From an uncultured Gemmatimonadales bacterium (GTDB lineage: Bacteria; Gemmatimonadota; Gemmatimonadetes; Longimicrobiales; RSA9): a stretch of 64,000 nucleotides of DNA. This document shows positions 37,102-50,773 of this stretch, in pieces. The stretch is taken from the NCBI GenBank assembly GCA_963708135.1, contig OY970192.1, positions 3,296,001-3,360,000 on the forward strand, given 5' to 3'. The translations under genes and the position numbers were made by a program. Positions within the stretch are counted from its first letter, which is position 1, and every line of letters begins with the position of its first letter. The notes under the pieces are model-generated. The model was not told the DNA's origin. It was given only the letters and a program-made list of their open reading frames with translations, and made no database searches.

Positions 37102-37188
37102 CAACTGCGACTGCGGGTAGCAAGGCACTCAGCCGCTCCAGGGCGGAACGCCTCGTGAGTCCCTCCTTCGCGATGGTGGGCGGCCGCG

Positions 37189-37453
37189 GTGAACTCCCCA
37201 CGCGCACCCCGGCGCGAAGACGGTTGGGGAGTTGACCGCGCTATTCGTTGTCAACTCCCCAGGCGCCGCAGGTCCATGGGAACGATTGGGGACTTTGCCG
37301 CGCTATTCGTTGTCAACTCCCCAACCGTCGATTCCACCACCAATGCGTGGGGACTTTCCTGCCTCACGGGCCCGATGCGTCGGCGCGCACGGCGGACCCC
37401 CCATGCTGGCGGGGATTTTCCTGCCCGCGCGGGCCCGATGCGCCGGCGCGCAC
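37189..37453. repeat. Palindromic ~62-bp-period element, copy 1
   Basis: TGGGGAGTTGACCGCGCTATTCGTTGTCAACTCCCCA at 37225-37261, a variant at 37287-37323, and half-copies either side; homologous to the reverse complement of 47630-47807. Confidence 0.85.
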
Positions 37454-43441: not shown

Positions 43442-44134
43442 TCAGCCGGCGAAGCAGTAGTTGGCGCCCTTTTCCTGGGCGAGCCCGACGGCGAGCACGC
43501 CCGACGGGACGAGCTGGACGCCCGGCAGCAGGTGGTCGACCCAGTCCTGGTGGATCTTGGCCGCGTCGCCGCCGGTCTTCTTGGCGACCGCCGCGGCGTC
43601 GACCGTGAGCGCCATGTTGCAGACGCCCACGAGCACGCCGGTGTCGATCAGGCGGGTGACGCCAATGTCGGGCAGCGGCAGCCCCTTGATGTCCGCGTAG
43701 ATATTGCGCCTGGCGGGCTTGCCGTTCTCCTCGATCTTCAGGTCCTCGCCGAACGGGTACTTGGCCCACATCGCGTCCTGGAGTCCGAGCGCGGCCGACT
43801 CGTGCCGCAGGACCAGCACGGCCGTGGCGTCCTTGGCGGCGCCCGGGTAGGTCTGGTCCAGCGTCAGCAGGTAGACGCGGGGCCAGACCGCGGGGAGCCC
43901 GCCGTGGGGCGCGGGCGAGTCGAAGACGATCTTGTGCGTGCCCTTGATGCGCTCGAGCCACGCATCCAGAGAGGGGTCGGCCGCGCCGCGCAGCGGACTC
44001 GTGACGCCCGGCTTCGTGCGCCCGTGGGTGGCGGGCGCGAAGCCGGCGAGTCCCGTGAAGCCGAGCGCGGCGGCGGCGCCGAGGCGCCCGATGAAGCCGC
44101 GCCGATGGGTCGTCGGGCGAGCGGGATCGGACAT
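43442..44134 (-). CDS. Tat-exported DsrE/F-like protein
   Basis: RRGFI twin-arginine signal; HKIVFD, GVCNMAL, VPSGVLAVGLAQEKG. Confidence 0.75.
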   Translation of the reverse strand: MSDPARPTTHRRGFIGRLGAAAALGFTGLAGFAPATHGRTKPGVTSPLRGAADPSLDAWLERIKGTHKIVFDSPAPHGGLPAVWPRVYLLTLDQTYPGAAKDATAVLVLRHESAALGLQDAMWAKYPFGEDLKIEENGKPARRNIYADIKGLPLPDIGVTRLIDTGVLVGVCNMALTVDAAAVAKKTGGDAAKIHQDWVDHLLPGVQLVPSGVLAVGLAQEKGANYCFAG

Positions 44135-44332
44135 TGTGCTCCTCCTTTGTGGGGGGACGCATTGGGGGGTCCGGTACGTCGTCGCAGGCTTTCAGGAATT
44201 ACACGCGCGGGCGTTCGTGTCAATGCGGACGATTTTCGGCAGGTGACGGCCCCTTTGCCCGCGCACCCGCCACGGCTTACGTTGGCGTGCGGCTGTCCCG
44301 CCGCGAACCCATCCGAACAACGGAAGGCCACG

Positions 44333-46834
44333 ATGCCCGAACGCCACGCCCTCCTGCGTCCCGTCCCGCTGCTCCTCCTGGCGACGTCTCTGCTCGCCGC
44401 GCCGCCGGCGCTCTCCGCGCAGGGCGCGGGGGCGAGTTCGTCGCCTCCCTCGATTGCGGACAAGACGCGCGGCATGGAGAAGCGCGACGGGCTGTTTCCG
44501 CTGTACTGGGACTCGGCCACGGGCAGGGTCTTCCTGGAGATCCCGCACCTGGACCGGCAGTACCTCTACGTGGAGGCGCTGCCGTGGGGCATGGGCTCCA
44601 ACGACATCGGGCTGGACCGCGGCCAGGAGGGGCAGGAGAAGCTGGTGGAGTTCCACCGCTCGGGGCCGAAGATCCTCATGGTGCAGCCGAACCTCGACTA
44701 CCGCGCCGAGACCGAGAATGCGGCGGAGCGGCGCGCGATCGAGCAGTCGTTCGCGCGCTCCGTCATCTGGGGCTTCAAGGTGGCGGCGGAGACGGACGGG
44801 CGGGTGCTCGTGGACGCCACGGACTTCGCCGTGCGCGACGTGCACGACGTGGTGGGCGCGCTCAAGCGCTCGAACCAGGGCGCCTACCACCTCGACCGCG
44901 ACCGCAGCGCCATCTACCTGCCCGACACGCGGGCGTTCCCCCGCAACACCGTCATCGAGGCGACGCTGACCTACGAGGGCGACGCGCCCGGGCGCTGGGT
45001 CCGCGACGTGACGCCGACGCCCACGGCCATCACGCTGCGCGAGCGCGTGGAGCTGGTCGAGCTGCCGGGCCCCGGCTTCCACGAGGTCAGGAACACCCCC
45101 GGCGCCGGCTATTTCGGGATCACCTACGACAACTACGCCGCGCCGCTCGGGCACCCGATGACGGAGCGCTTCATCACCAAGCACCGGCTCGAGAAGAAGG
45201 ACCCGGCGGCGGCCGTGAGCGAGCCCGTCCAGCCGATCGTCTATTACCTGGACCCGGGCGTGCCGGAGCCGATCCGCTCCGCGCTGCTGCGCGGCGTCGG
45301 CTGGTGGAACCAGGCCTTCGAGGCCGCCGGCTTCCGCAACGCCTTCCGCGTCGAGATGCTGCCCGACAGCGCCGACCCGCTCGACATCCGCTACAACGTC
45401 GTCGAGTGGGTGCACCGCGCCACGCGCGGCTGGAGCTACGGCGGCTCCATCGTGGATCCGCGCACGGGCGAGATCATCCAGGGCCACGTCACGCTCGGCT
45501 CGCTGCGCGCGCGCCAGGACTACCTGATCGGCCGCGGCCTCATCGGCCCCTACCACGGCGACGACGCCGACACCGCCCGCATCGCGCGCATGGTGCTCGC
45601 CCGCATGAGCCAGCTCGGCGCCCACGAGACCGGCCACACCCTCGGCCTGGCCCACAACTACATCGCCAGCACCGAGGGCCGCGCCTCCGTCATGGACTAC
45701 CCGTACATGGACGTGAAGCTGGCGCCCGACGGCTCGCTCGACCTCTCGGACGCCTACGCCAGCGGGATCGGCGCCTGGGACAAGGTCACCATCGCCTACG
45801 GCTACTCCGTCTTCCCGCCCGGCGTGAACGACGACTCCGCGCGCATGGCCATCCTGGCCGATGCGCGCGCGCACGGCATCACCTTCCTCACCGACCAGGA
45901 CGCCCGGCCGACCGGCTCCGTGCACCCCCGGGTCCACCTCTGGGACAACGGCACCGACGCCGCCGCCGAGCTCGAGCGGCTGATCCGCGTGCGCGCCGCG
46001 GCGCTCGACCGCTTCGGCGAGACCTCGATCCGCCAGGGCATGCCCGTCGCCACCATGGAGGAGGCCCTCGTACCGATCTACCTGTTCCACCGCTACCAGG
46101 TCGAGGCCGCCGCCAAGGTCGTGGGCGGCGAGTCCTACGACTACGCGCTCCGCGGCGACGGGCAGACGCCGATGCGGCGTGTCCCCGGCCCCGAGCAGCA
46201 CCAGGCGCTGGCCGCGCTCATGCACACCCTCTCGCCCGCCGTGCTGGCGCTGCCCCGCTCCATCGTGGACCGGCTCCCGCCCCGCCCGTTCCTCTATCCC
46301 GCGCACCGCGAGCTCTTCGAGCGCTACACCGGCCTCGCCTTCGACCCCGTCGCGCCGGCCCGCGTGGCCGCGGACCTGACCGTCTCCATGCTGCTCCAGC
46401 CGCAGCGGGCCGCCCGCCTGGTCGAGCAGCACGCGCTCGACGCCTCGCTGCCCGGGCTCGCCCAGGTGCTGGACACGCTCGTCCAGGCCACGTTCGGCGC
46501 CCGCACCCGCCCGGGCTACGACGGCGCCGTCCAGCGGACCGTCCGCGACGTCGTGCTCCACGACCTGCTCTCCCTCGGCGCGGGCGCCCCGATGCCCGAC
46601 GTGCGTGCCCAGGTCCTCTACCGCGTCCAGGCGCTCCGCCGCCGCCTGGCCGCCGCCGCCCCCGGCGCGCCCGAGCAGGACCGCGCCCAGGCCGCCCTCA
46701 TGGTGAACGAGATCGACCGCTTCGTGAAGGACCCGACCCCCTTCGCCAAGCCCGCGGCGGCGCTCGAGATCCCGCCCGGCAGCCCGATCGGGCAGGCAAT
46801 GCTCGATTATCTCCGGGAGTATGCCGGCTGGTAG
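44333..46834 (+). CDS. Exported zinc metalloprotease (DUF5117/DUF4953 type metzincin)
   Basis: HETGHTLGLAHN, SVMDYP Met-turn, PIVYYLD, DPRTGEI. Confidence 0.9.
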   Translation: MPERHALLRPVPLLLLATSLLAAPPALSAQGAGASSSPPSIADKTRGMEKRDGLFPLYWDSATGRVFLEIPHLDRQYLYVEALPWGMGSNDIGLDRGQEGQEKLVEFHRSGPKILMVQPNLDYRAETENAAERRAIEQSFARSVIWGFKVAAETDGRVLVDATDFAVRDVHDVVGALKRSNQGAYHLDRDRSAIYLPDTRAFPRNTVIEATLTYEGDAPGRWVRDVTPTPTAITLRERVELVELPGPGFHEVRNTPGAGYFGITYDNYAAPLGHPMTERFITKHRLEKKDPAAAVSEPVQPIVYYLDPGVPEPIRSALLRGVGWWNQAFEAAGFRNAFRVEMLPDSADPLDIRYNVVEWVHRATRGWSYGGSIVDPRTGEIIQGHVTLGSLRARQDYLIGRGLIGPYHGDDADTARIARMVLARMSQLGAHETGHTLGLAHNYIASTEGRASVMDYPYMDVKLAPDGSLDLSDAYASGIGAWDKVTIAYGYSVFPPGVNDDSARMAILADARAHGITFLTDQDARPTGSVHPRVHLWDNGTDAAAELERLIRVRAAALDRFGETSIRQGMPVATMEEALVPIYLFHRYQVEAAAKVVGGESYDYALRGDGQTPMRRVPGPEQHQALAALMHTLSPAVLALPRSIVDRLPPRPFLYPAHRELFERYTGLAFDPVAPARVAADLTVSMLLQPQRAARLVEQHALDASLPGLAQVLDTLVQATFGARTRPGYDGAVQRTVRDVVLHDLLSLGAGAPMPDVRAQVLYRVQALRRRLAAAAPGAPEQDRAQAALMVNEIDRFVKDPTPFAKPAAALEIPPGSPIGQAMLDYLREYAGW

Positions 46835-46935
46835 CGGGATGCGTGTTTGGGGGGGGCGGGATGCGGGAATGGGAGGGTGCCACCCGGTTGAGCGCAACCC
46901 CGCCGCCAGCCTCGGGGACCCTCCCCCCGCACCCC

Positions 46936-47095
46936 GTGCCGCAGTCCGTCGTGCCGCAGTTCCGTCGTGCCGCAGTCCGTCGTGCCGCAGTTCCGTCGTG
47001 CCGCAGTCCGTCGTGCCGCAGTCTGTCGTGCCGCAGTCCGTCGTGCCGCAGTCCGTCGTGCCGCAGTCCGTCGTGCCGCAGTCCGTCGTGCCGCA
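46936..47095. repeat. 15-bp tandem repeat GTGCCGCAGTCCGTC, 10 copies plus a partial
   Basis: Direct count; units 2 and 4 carry an extra T and unit 6 a C>T change. Confidence 0.95.
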
Positions 47096-47629
47096 CCGCC
47101 CCACCGCACCCTTGTACCGCCGCGTCTCCCCCTCCCTGGGGGGGGACTTCCGGGATGACGTGTGCCTGCGGCGCAACTCGGCTTGGGGACCGGCGTCCGG
47201 ATCGGCCTGGCGGCTGGCGTCATGGCGACGCCGGGTCCGCCCCCTGCGCCTGACGGCGCCGCCGTTGCCCCCTTCCACCGCCACCTCCGCTTTCGCGCCC
47301 CCGCCCCGTAGCATCCAGGGGTCCGGGGGAACTCAGGGGCGGCGCGAAAAGCACGGCGCGATTCGCGGGCGGGCTCGAGGACGGGCCGACCCGGGCCGGG
47401 GGGAGCGAGCAAGATCGGGGTGTGGACCTCTCCGTGAGGATCGGAACCCCTCTTCTTATCGGGATTCGAGAAGAAAGGCGCAGTGGCCGCCTCTCGGCGA
47501 CACCGCGACCGCCATCTTGCTCGATTTCCGGGATGATTCGGGATCTGGGCGGTTTGGCGCCCGTCCATTGGGCGATCTTGATCGCGCCGCGAGCGCTGTT
47601 GTGGGCCGATGAGCCGCTCTGCCGCCCGC

Positions 47630-47807
47630 GAGGGCAGGAAAGTCCCCACCCTTCCGTCGCGGAATGGACGCTTGGGGACTTGACTGCGAATAGCGCGGCA
47701 AAGTCCCCAATCGTTCCGATCGGCCTCCGACGCTTGGGGAGTTGACAACGAATAGCGCGGTCAACTCCCCAAACGCCTTCGCGGGGGGGTACGGCTGGGG
47801 AGTTCAC
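47630..47807. repeat. Palindromic ~62-bp-period element, copy 2 (inverted)
   Basis: TGGGGAGTTGACAACGAATAGCGCGGTCAACTCCCCA at 47735-47771 is the exact reverse complement of 37225-37261; a variant lies at 47673-47709. Confidence 0.85.
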
Positions 47808-47846
47808 GGCCGCCGCACGCAGCCGCCGCCCGCGCGAACCGCACCA

Positions 47847-48350
47847 GCCCCGGCTCCCACCCGCGCGCGGACGAGGGGCTGCCGGCCTGGATGACCGTGC
47901 CCGCGCCAGCCCCGGCTCCCACCCGCGCGCGGACGAGGGCTGCTCATCGCCGCGGCGGCCACCGTCCCCGCCCCGGCCCGCGCCCGCGCGCGGAAGAGTC
48001 TGCTGCGCCCGCGCGGCTTCGACGACGTCCACCCCGGTCCGCGGCCGCGCGGGGAAGAGGCGGCCGCAGTGTTGCGGGCAACCGAAACGACGCGCGCCCG
48101 CGCCCGCGCGGGGAAGAGCGGGTCCGCCCCCTGCGCCAGCAACGTCCGCACCCCGCGCCCGCGCCCGCGCGGGGAAGAGGTCAGCCGGATCGCCGCAGTG
48201 CGCGTCGGTGCGCCCGCGCCCGCGCCCGCGCGGGGAAGAGGGAGGAGGTCGTGAGCCGCGAGGACGCGCTAGACCCGCGCCCGCGCGGGGAAGAGGGAGG
48301 AGATGGTGAGCCGCGAGGACGCGCTGGACCCGCGCCCGCGCGGGGAAGAG
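47847..48350 (-). CRISPR. Degenerate orphan CRISPR-like array (9 repeats, type I-E-like geometry)
   Basis: Core CCCGCGCCCGCGCGGGGAAGAG ends at 47875, 47937, 47998, 48059, 48118, 48179, 48240, 48295 and 48350. Six spacers of 30-33 nt are distinct and two of 26 nt are near-identical. No cas genes in the window. Confidence 0.45.
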
Positions 48351-48592
48351 GGCGGGGGCGGCGGCGGGTCGGGCCCGGCGGGGAGTCGTGAGCCCGCGGC
48401 GCGCCGCGCGCCTCCGCCAACGGAAGCCGGCGCGGCCGGGCGGCAGCCCCCTCGAGCCCCGAGCCCCGAGCCCCCAGCCCCGAGCCCGAGCCCGAGCCCG
48501 AGCCCCGCCCCCGACCCGTCCGTTCAGTCCGGCCGGGCGCACCGATCGGCCCCGGCCGTCGCTGGCTCGGGCAGGCCGATGCGAGACGCACT

Positions 48593-50512
48593 TCAGTACT
48601 TCACCGTCCACCGGTCGTTCGACGTGTCGGCGTCCATCCAGATCCCGCCGTCGAGGGTGAGCGACTGGAGCGTCTTGCCGGTATGCACGGTGACGGTGGC
48701 CTTGGCCTGGTCGGGCGCCCAGATGGCGGGGGTCTCGTGCACGGTCTCGGTGGTGCCGTCGCCGTAGGTGAGGACGAGGTTCACGGGCGCGGGCATCCCG
48801 CCGACGTTCTCGAGGCTCACGGTATAGCCGCCGCTGGTCTTCTTCACCCCGCGGACGGCCAGGTCGATGTAGCCGTTGGAGAAGAACCAGTCGCGCCAGA
48901 ACCAGTCCAGGCCGCGGCTGGCCACGCCGTCGAACGTGTAGAAGAAGTCCCACGGCTGCGGGTGCTTGCCGTTCCAGCGCGCGATGTACGCCCGCAGGCA
49001 CTGCTTGAAGAGCCGGTCGCCGAGCAGGTCCTTCATGGCCAGGTAGCCGAGCGCCGCCTTGCCGTAGGCGTTGTCGCCGTAGGCGACCCCGCCCAGCACG
49101 TCCGCCGGCGTCACGATCGGCAGGTCGGATAGCGGCGAGGGGTTGTGGATCCAGCGGTTCACGCGGAAGCTCCGGAACAGCGACGTCGCCTTCGGCAGCC
49201 CCATGTCGGCGCTGTTGATGAGATACTCGAACGTCGTCGCCCAGCCCTCGTCCATGAACGCGTAGCGGGTCTCGTCGATGCCCATGTAGAACGGCATGTA
49301 GGTGTGCGCGATCTCGTGGTCGGCCACGAAGCGCGAGAAGCTGGTGTCCGGCACGGAGCCGTCGTTCACCATCATCGGATACTCCATGTCCGCGCTTCCC
49401 TGCACGATGGTGCTCTTCGGGTACGGGTACGGCACGCCCGGCCAGTTGTGGGAGAACCAGTCCAGCGCGTGCTCCCCGAAGCCGACCATGTAGTGGAAGT
49501 CCTCGGCGCTGTCGTCGTAGGCCGCCTGCACGCTCGCGCGCCGGTGCGCCGCCTCGTCCACCAGCACGCTGCCGGCGTCCCAGTCGTAGTGGTTCGACAG
49601 CGCGAAGGCCACGTCCGGCACGTAGCGCGACTCGAAGCGCCAGGCGTTGACGGAGTCCGGCTTCGTGACCTGCCCGCCGGCGAGCTGCGCCCCCGTCGCC
49701 ACGTGGATCGTGCCATCGGCGGTGAGCGAGCTCCGGTAGCGCGCGAGCGGCTCCGGCTGCAGCACGGCGGCCGCGTCGCCGAGCATCCCCGTCCCCCACA
49801 CCACGTAGTTCGCCGGCACGCGCACGGTGACGTCGTAGTCGTTGAAGTCGCTGTAGAACTCGTGCCCGGTGTGCTCCATGGTGTCCCACCCGTCCACGTC
49901 GTCGTAGACGGCGACGCGCGGGTAGAAGTACGCCAGGAAGTAGGTCGTGGAGTCGAGCATCCCCTCCCGCCCCGCCCGCTTCGAGACGTCGTAATGCCAG
50001 TCGAAGGCGAGGCGCACGGAGTCGTGGGGCGCAAGCGGCTGCGGCAGCTTCACGGACTGCCACGTCACCGACCGCCCGCTCTCCTTCCACTCCTGCGGCT
50101 GCCCGTTCACGGCGAAGCGGTCGATGTGCGTGCCGGACGTCAGGAAGTCGGGCGACGTCGCCCCCCCGCGCGCCGCGGTCGGGCGGTGGAAGTTCTCGAA
50201 CAGCTTGATCACGAGGCTCGGCAGCGTGTCCGGGCTGTCGTTCCGGTACACGATCTCCTCGCTCCCCGTGATCTGCCGGTCGGGCGGCATCGCGCTCACC
50301 GTGATCCGGTAGCGCGCGTGGTTCTCCCAGTACCGCGGCCCCGGCTCGCCGCTGAGCGTCCGGGTGCCCTTCGCCACCGCCTGCTTGAAGGTGCGCGGCA
50401 TGTAGAGGTGCTGCGCGGCGGCCGGCGCCGGCAGGAAGGCCAGGCCCAGCAGCGGCGGGAGCCAGCCTTGCCGGAAGCTGCGGCCCGCCGGCGCGGGGGA
50501 GGTGGTTGTCAT
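48593..50512 (-). CDS. M1 family (gluzincin) aminopeptidase, exported
   Basis: MEYP, HEIAH, FMDEG, NAYGK. Confidence 0.9.
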   Translation of the reverse strand: MTTTSPAPAGRSFRQGWLPPLLGLAFLPAPAAAQHLYMPRTFKQAVAKGTRTLSGEPGPRYWENHARYRITVSAMPPDRQITGSEEIVYRNDSPDTLPSLVIKLFENFHRPTAARGGATSPDFLTSGTHIDRFAVNGQPQEWKESGRSVTWQSVKLPQPLAPHDSVRLAFDWHYDVSKRAGREGMLDSTTYFLAYFYPRVAVYDDVDGWDTMEHTGHEFYSDFNDYDVTVRVPANYVVWGTGMLGDAAAVLQPEPLARYRSSLTADGTIHVATGAQLAGGQVTKPDSVNAWRFESRYVPDVAFALSNHYDWDAGSVLVDEAAHRRASVQAAYDDSAEDFHYMVGFGEHALDWFSHNWPGVPYPYPKSTIVQGSADMEYPMMVNDGSVPDTSFSRFVADHEIAHTYMPFYMGIDETRYAFMDEGWATTFEYLINSADMGLPKATSLFRSFRVNRWIHNPSPLSDLPIVTPADVLGGVAYGDNAYGKAALGYLAMKDLLGDRLFKQCLRAYIARWNGKHPQPWDFFYTFDGVASRGLDWFWRDWFFSNGYIDLAVRGVKKTSGGYTVSLENVGGMPAPVNLVLTYGDGTTETVHETPAIWAPDQAKATVTVHTGKTLQSLTLDGGIWMDADTSNDRWTVKY

Positions 50513-50773
50513 GGCGGGTCGTGCCTCTCCGTTCGCGGATCCCACTCGGTGCGATGGACGCCGGGCAACCTGGCCCGGGCCGGGCGTCCGCGCCAGCGGG
50601 CGCCGGCCCCCTATACGGCACCAGGCGCCGCGAGGATCCATGGCCGTCCGCGGCGGCGCGGAAGTCGGGGCGGGCGACGCGCGCCGGGCCGCGCCGTCGC
50701 TTGCCTCCCGCAGCCCGGAGCCCTACCCTCCGCCCCGGGCAACCCCGGAACCTCGCTGGTGGAGGGCAGGACC

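Follow-up and report, generated by a model that had tools for sequence, protein, structure and literature searches.

We analyzed a 64,000-nucleotide stretch of the genome of an uncultured soil Gemmatimonadales bacterium (hereafter the window), which carries an orphan array of nine homologous repeats resembling CRISPR (short palindromic repeats that are clustered and regularly interspaced). The genome is a single contig of 5,445,952 bases at 72% GC (OY970192.1, here C1), in which the window spans C1:3296001-3360000; positions without a prefix are those of the window. Repeat searches, Tandem Repeats Finder (TRF) and repeat alignment place the array at 47847-48350 on the minus strand, from U1 (47877..47847) to U9 (48350..48323). 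We read it, with a probability of roughly 0.55, as a decaying array that derives from type I-E spacer integration and is probably inert, either the relic of a former locus or an ectopic "neo" array. An initial annotation of the window, made from the letters alone, had offered three explanations, and of these a decayed I-E array is the best supported, by the geometry, the unique spacers, the hairpin and the stepwise change of the repeat along the array, while the marginal similarity to the repeat of the resident I-E system stands against it. This likeliest reading would make the locus a matter of routine annotation: a short, probably inert array whose drifting repeat CRISPR finders may miss or misjudge.

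Read in register on the minus strand, the repeats start at 47875, 47937, 47998, 48059, 48118, 48179, 48240, 48295 and 48350, which reproduces the coordinates first reported and the spacings of 62, 61, 61, 59, 61, 61, 55 and 55 nt. The array thus has the direct repeats of 28-29 nt and the period of ~61 nt of a type I-E array, in a genome where 61 nt is also the modal satellite period. Its CRISPR-like core comprises U3-U7 (47940-48240, minus strand), units of 59-61 nt with 28-nt repeats and unique spacers of 31, 33, 31, 33 and 33 nt. U8 and U9 (48241-48350, minus strand) are two 55-nt whole-unit tandem duplicates in which a 22-nt core is followed by TCYAGC; they are 96% alike by TRF, in agreement with the earlier report of two near-identical last spacers, and the flank holds part of their "spacer" a third time, at about 48380-48405. 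Units of 61 nt are longer than those of 55 nt by 6 nt, which equals one CGCGGG hexamer. At the other end, U1 and U2 (47847-47939, minus strand) carry, by repeat alignment, the most diverged repeat variant, are alike over 39 nt at 97%, and probably represent the trailer. The array itself (47838-48350) has no further copy in the genome.

Spacers of type I-E arrays are 32-33 nt long and mutually unrelated; those of U3-U7 measure 31-33 nt and resemble one another at the level of chance, those of U8 and U9 are near-identical, and those of U1 and U2 are alike in part. The initial annotation had described its six spacers as differing from each other. The spacers of U2-U7 are indeed not alignable with one another: their mean pairwise score is 4.48, compared with 4.02 +/- 0.34 for shuffled sequences and 4.92 for GC-rich pairs of spacers from the resident I-E array. 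For U3-U7, these chance-level spacers rule out divergence of a minisatellite as the origin of the entire array, an explanation that we accept for the end units. Moreover, five exact copies of the repeat core stand beside spacers of chance-level similarity, a combination that neutral divergence of a tandem duplication cannot explain. Matches by TRF amount to 67% in the orphan array, to 63-82% in pieces of the resident CRISPR array, and to 86-97% in seven non-CRISPR satellites of 61-nt period, and at no other non-cas periodic locus examined in the genome was a short conserved repeat combined with unique spacers. The first bases of the 33-nt spacers are C, G, T, T and C, never A, and the same base is missing from this position in the resident array (C 85, G 42, T 13, A 0), which is weak evidence.

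The distribution of the repeat was followed with its 22-nt core, CTCTTCCCCGCGCGGGCGCGGG. The window contains eight matches with up to three mismatches, against 0.04 expected from 100 shuffles, and seven of the eight fall inside the array. A search of the whole genome returned 5 exact copies, 6 with up to one mismatch, 8 with up to two and 11 with up to three; all five exact copies and seven of the 11 belong to the array, and the remaining four are scattered singletons. All nine repeats are homologous across the full 28 nt, and their variants shift stepwise along the array, with the most divergent at one end. U1 and U2 are identical (30/30), U2 and U3 agree at 24/28 positions ungapped, U3 and U4 at 25/28, U5 and U6 at 27/28, and U6 and U7 at 28/28; U8 and U9 are identical to U5-U7 over the first 22 nt and then continue with TCYAGC. 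Pairwise repeat scores accordingly bear out the block pattern proposed before (R1=R2, then R3-R7, then R8-R9). The description of the 3' handle as not conserved has to be qualified: the 3' part of the repeat does vary, in three positional variants (CCGGGG in U1-U4, CGCG(G/C)G in U5-U7 and TCYAGC in U8-U9), so it is not simply unconserved. The repeat is therefore the full 28 nt in U1-U7. In isolation, the U8 and U9 repeats form a hairpin at positions 7-22 (stem of 6 bp, loop of 4 nt), and the resident I-E repeat forms one of the same size at 6-21. According to the initial annotation, the E. coli repeat contains TTCCCCGCGC. Trailer-end repeats of CRISPR arrays degenerate, and the position of the most divergent repeats at U1 and U2 is consistent with a trailer at this end and a former leader at U9, on the minus strand; this orientation also places the I-E-like 5' half of the repeat first.

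A genome search for cas genes, proposed as a check in the initial annotation, returned a complete I-E set. The operon at C1:3654075-3662600 encodes Cas3, Cse1, Cse2, Cas7e, Cas5e, Cas6e, Cas1 and Cas2 and lies beside a resident array (C1:3644149-3652744) of 141 identical 28-nt repeats, in which the period is 61 nt in 140/140 intervals and the spacer is 33 nt in 140/140 cases, with the variable 29th base counted in. This system is about 300-310 kb from the orphan array and not adjacent to it. The statement that no cas gene is in the window is true for the families scanned (Cas1, Cas2 of I-E type, Cas3-HD, Cas6e and Cas7e), all of which matched only outside the window, but it is incomplete, since a full I-E system is present elsewhere in the same genome. 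The conserved 28-nt and variable 33-nt blocks of the orphan array equal the geometry of this resident I-E array, which is one of the reasons why we regard the orphan as CRISPR-derived. An Rfam scan of 46500-48900 returned no CRISPR family; since the scan missed the resident I-E array too, this result speaks neither for nor against.

The genome also has a second, unrelated CRISPR locus, at 5.13 Mb. One resident I-E spacer, res_16 (counted from 0 at the leader end), is identical over 33/33 nt to C1:5133066-5133098, inside the array of that locus, a match which suggests that the two CRISPR systems took up DNA of one and the same invader. An open reading frame on the minus strand (C1:3653563-3654030), located between the resident I-E array and cas2/cas1, carries transposase-like helix-turn-helix domains (HTH_32, HTH_29, HTH_23 and HTH_28).

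In the history that we propose for a decaying I-E-type array, each Cas1-Cas2 integration would have duplicated a 28-bp repeat and inserted a 33-bp spacer, yielding the 61-nt units with unrelated spacers that make up U3-U7. The array would be read on the minus strand, with U9 at the former leader end and U1/U2 as the trailer, so that the repeat cline would run from old to new. Ordinary instability of repeats may then have reshaped it: slippage of the CGCGGG hexamer in the 3' part of the repeat (U5-U7 versus U8-U9), and whole-unit duplications at both ends (U8~U9, 55 nt; U1=U2, 62 nt) together with point changes. Having today neither a leader nor a canonical 5'-handle sequence, the array would be transcribed at most by read-through from the peptidase gene. 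The single resident Cas6e might bind or cut its hairpins, although the RNAs of the array would be unlikely to load into the resident Cascade. Two CRISPR-type origins agree with the data. The array may be the relic of an I-E locus with a repeat type of its own, either lost or acquired without its cas genes, or the resident Cas1-Cas2 may have started it ectopically, at a non-canonical site.

Several results weigh against an I-E origin or a working array. When aligned globally to the resident I-E repeat, the orphan repeats score only marginally above chance: the fraction of GC-matched 30-mers from the genome that align as well is 0.010 for U7, 0.03-0.04 for U3, U6, U8 and U9, 0.10 for U1, U2 and U5, and 0.23 for U4. 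We also considered whether U1 and U2 retain a canonical TGGxACCG handle, and discarded this idea because they align to the resident repeat only at chance level (0.10-0.18). The 3' ends of the orphan repeats (CGCGGG, CCGGGG and TCYAGC) are unlike the resident ATGGACC handle, so that, of the features expected of an I-E repeat, the short GC hairpin is present, the conserved 8-nt handle that should follow it is replaced by a different and variable end, and the similarity of the repeat is marginal. Neither the array (z = -0.51) nor single repeats have folding energies better than those of shuffled sequences. Only 5/8 spacers are unique, and each end of the array (U1=U2; U8~U9) is a simple tandem duplication.

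The spacers and the surroundings of the array add further points of this kind. Spacer GC content is 0.757 in the orphan array and 0.680 in the resident array (Mann-Whitney p = 0.0045), and the local intergenic DNA likewise stands at 0.757. The distal part of spacer U6 (48119-48137) has a 19-nt exact match at 47232-47250, 870 nt away in the same intergenic region; the likeness does not extend beyond 19 of the 33 nt, and by a rough estimate such nearness is improbable by chance. Searches for protospacers gave no significant match among 50,697 phage records (best E 0.05) or 72,556 plasmid records (best E 0.01), nor in the organism's own genome, where the best partial matches reach 18-25 identities and those of resident spacers are similar (mean 18.0, mostly <=23). 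The would-be leader for minus-strand transcription (48351-48592) confirms the earlier remark that no AT-rich leader is present: it is 84% GC, with 89% over its last 100 nt, includes a (CTCGGG)n microsatellite, and shows no likeness to the resident leader (62-65% GC). Within 46800-48800 there are 0 promoter-like sites. Finally, the array adjoins a dispersed hairpin element, H, that itself has 61-62-nt units, and 61 nt is the commonest period among the 106 tandem-repeat loci of the genome (period >=30, at least 2.5 copies), with nine loci, three of which are pieces of the resident CRISPR and one the orphan array. Since H adjoins the array with units of this length, the period alone is weaker evidence than it appears.

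These last observations keep alive an explanation without CRISPR, which we consider the strongest competitor, though a rather doubtful one: a GC-rich hairpin satellite with a 61-nt unit, in which slippage, gene conversion or selection would have held the hairpin constant as the linker diverged until no likeness remained, and whose resemblance to I-E arrays, in period and in GC-rich palindromes, would be coincidental. Satellites of this class are common in the genome. Once loci with a secondary 61-nt row are counted, there are seven non-CRISPR satellites of 61-nt period in two unrelated sequence families, one of the H type (C1:867371 and C1:5092682) and one built on a GTGCGCC-N-GGCGCAC hairpin (C1:190418, 3109414, 3189156, 3190762 and 5158750; 3-8 units at 86-96% identity). 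With them, the chance that the 61-nt period is a coincidence rises, perhaps, from a few per cent to 5-10%. For scans that use sequence alone the lesson is one of caution, as in this genome a 61-nt period does not by itself signal CRISPR. The ordinary whole-unit duplications at both ends, the CGCGGG slippage visible within the repeat, the marginal similarity to the resident repeat, the local composition of the spacers, the nearby 19-nt match, and the absence of a leader and of any protospacer found all speak for such an origin.

What speaks for the CRISPR-derived array over a satellite is the pattern of conservation. The seven satellites conserve the whole unit, at 86-97%, whereas the orphan array, at 67% and with chance-level spacers, does so only in the 55-nt U8/U9 pair; no other satellite has a conserved block of 22-28 nt beside unrelated stretches of 31-33 nt. 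The five exact cores beside chance-level spacers would require a homogenization confined to 28 nt, and we know of no such process for bacterial minisatellites. Moreover, the blocks, 28 nt conserved and 33 nt variable, are exactly those of the resident I-E array.

The H element deserves description here, for both its units and its position bear on the satellite explanation. It is a dispersed element of ~190 nt at 47624-47812 on the plus strand, which adjoins the U1 end but lies outside the array; 24 copies have >=80% identity, one of them at 37180-37371 of the window and 22 more at other places in the genome. Its hairpins are conserved as GGGGAGTTGAC-N13-GTCAACTCCCC, with an internal period of 61-62 nt. 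H is tandemly amplified at C1:5092682 (5.2 units, 97%) and, in a diverged form, at C1:867371 (8.2 units). About half of its other copies precede GC-rich minisatellites with periods of 20-60 nt, an association that again suits a satellite origin of the array. The element has no match in Rfam, and its second hairpin has short matches in other genera of the family. H was also considered as a leader for the array and rejected: its conserved part stops at 47812, the element is dispersed, and its other copies are followed by unrelated DNA or by plain minisatellites with periods of 20-60 nt.

The ectopic version of the CRISPR origin can be stated more specifically, and in this form we hold it to be unlikely. 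The resident I-E Cas1-Cas2 would have repeatedly used a GC-rich intergenic hairpin, with no sequence relationship to its own repeat, as its integration site and so built a 28+33 array de novo, which then decayed. Precedent comes from E. coli, where off-target integration by I-E Cas1-Cas2 is reported to spawn new arrays (Nivala, Shipman and Church 2018, Nat Microbiol 3:310, as cited in PMC7054753, bioRxiv 10.1101/148544 and PMC6698737); according to these citing papers, the spontaneous birth of a CRISPR locus is shown in the laboratory for E. coli, and natural cases are circumstantial only. The attraction of the ectopic version is that it explains the identical geometry together with the poor similarity of the repeat; three repeat variants and an absent spacer source suit it less well. 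If true, it would provide a natural example in which the parent system is intact, with a bearing on how arrays and repeat families arise. In a bolder form, which is speculative, off-target events of the integrase combined with unequal crossing-over would also have seeded the over-represented 61-nt satellites. A related idea, that the 61-nt satellites are amplified single integrations, is unsupported: their copy numbers (8.0, 6.2, 6.5, 6.0, 3.1, 8.2 and 5.2) do not fit n + 0.46, and the families are dispersed.

A functional role seems to us very improbable. The initial annotation had suggested a trans-acting guide array for an unlinked effector. In such a case a minus-strand transcript would be cut by the resident Cas6e to guide Cascade or to act as a decoy or regulator. 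This is possible in principle, given a complete I-E system with one Cas6e about 300 kb away, U8 and U9 hairpins that share the structure of the resident repeat, a 22-nt core that is exact in 5 repeats, and the occurrence of the same 28-nt repeat form in a second organism (described below), which could mean selection. The suggestion is nonetheless unsupported. The end of the repeat that would form the 5' handle is unlike the resident one and varies within the array, the repeat similarity is marginal, and no leader, promoter-like site or target was found; two units on the leader side carry the same "spacer"; and no relative keeps the locus, the peptidase loci of four other genera being without an array. 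The remaining suggestion, a satellite resembling repetitive extragenic palindromic (REP) elements, fails by the measure that the initial annotation had itself set, as copies of the core are dispersed neither through this genome nor through 400 others of the phylum. A coding reading of the array was set aside because the region has no codon-position GC signal, neither 61 nor 55 is divisible by 3, and the open reading frame at 47891-48391 has no Pfam match.

We looked for the array in relatives and in sequence collections. None of forty relatives, which include no member of the same genus, has a match to it. Four other genera have orthologues of the flanking M1-like peptidase (60-65% protein identity); no array lies near these, as judged also by TRF, and the intergenic DNA there is not alignable. 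The exact 22-mer core gave 0 matches in IMG/VR and no array in 185,579 species genomes, where only two singletons appeared, both in Actinomycetota. Both of these lie within one unrelated conserved context of ~95 nt, and we therefore rejected them as true relatives and take the matches to be chance. This context is itself common to two different Actinomycetota genomes (L027:1470-1565 in one and the reverse strand of L028 in the other), which suggests, on sequence grounds, an unrelated conserved non-coding element. With up to three mismatches, a search of 400 genomes of the phylum gave singletons in 151/401 genomes, the level of a reversed-pattern control, and no cluster outside the source genome.

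A single copy of the repeat does occur elsewhere, on a metagenome contig (L029), where 29/30 nt agree with the U8/U9 form, a match that takes in the two bases preceding the core and the six following it. An extended match of this kind is unlikely to be due to chance, although it is a single observation. The copy lies 14 nt from the end of the contig and downstream of an S41 peptidase gene, at a distance of 65 nt; this gene and a neighboring M23 peptidase gene, both of housekeeping type, are unrelated to those that flank the array in the window. Its position at a contig edge is what a repeated structure or an array that breaks the assembly would look like. For the source locus, contigs of one DNA run (47% of words present) cover the flanks within 45500-50000 and do not cover the array.

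The array sits in a 1.76-kb stretch without codon-position GC signal, between two convergent genes; no such pattern is present in 46850-48550. On one side, a Met-zincin gene (DUF5117 + DUF4953; 43532-46834, plus strand), with codon-position GC signal from near 44200, points its 3' end toward the array. On the other, the convergent gene for the M1-like peptidase (48593-50641, minus strand) has its stop codon 243 nt from U9. The remaining intergenic DNA is a mosaic of repeats found elsewhere in the genome. In addition to H, it includes a 15-nt tandem repeat, CGTGCCGCAGTCCGT, in 10.6 copies at 46934-47095, a unit that forms tandem arrays at about 20 other sites of the genome, and a dispersed element of ~230 nt at 47362-47596, with about seven copies at 81-90% identity and some weaker ones.

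The locus can be compared with several known systems. It shares with REP elements and bacterial interspersed mosaic elements, with the 61-nt satellites and with H a GC-rich palindrome, an intergenic location between convergent genes, a 61-nt period, and tandem amplification. It differs from the former two in that its core is not dispersed, with 4 singletons at 3 mismatches in 5.45 Mb, and from the genome's 61-nt satellites in that they conserve the whole unit and the orphan array only 28 nt. With the neo-CRISPR loci of E. coli, as the citing papers describe them, it has in common a non-canonical site and repeat, the repeat and spacer lengths of the resident integrase, and the presence of Cas1 and Cas2; its nine units and three repeat variants, by contrast, point to more history than a recent ectopic event implies.

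CRISPR arrays that are orphan or degenerate, with no cas genes next to them, are common and widely reported. Like them, the locus is a short array of mutated repeats far from cas genes; unlike them, it coexists with an intact system of matching geometry, of whose repeat the orphan repeat is not a recognizable copy. The nearest comparison is with the resident I-E array itself. The orphan differs from it by another, variable 3' handle, by the absence of a leader and of adjacent cas genes, by the lack of a protospacer in the records searched, and by its small size, nine repeats of which four belong to duplicated end units. The two nevertheless share a 61-nt unit of a 28-nt repeat and a 33-nt spacer with unique central spacers, a GC hairpin near positions 6-22 whose stem has 6 bp and whose loop has 4 nt, offset by one nucleotide, and the 5' part of the repeat, xxCTxCCCCGC.

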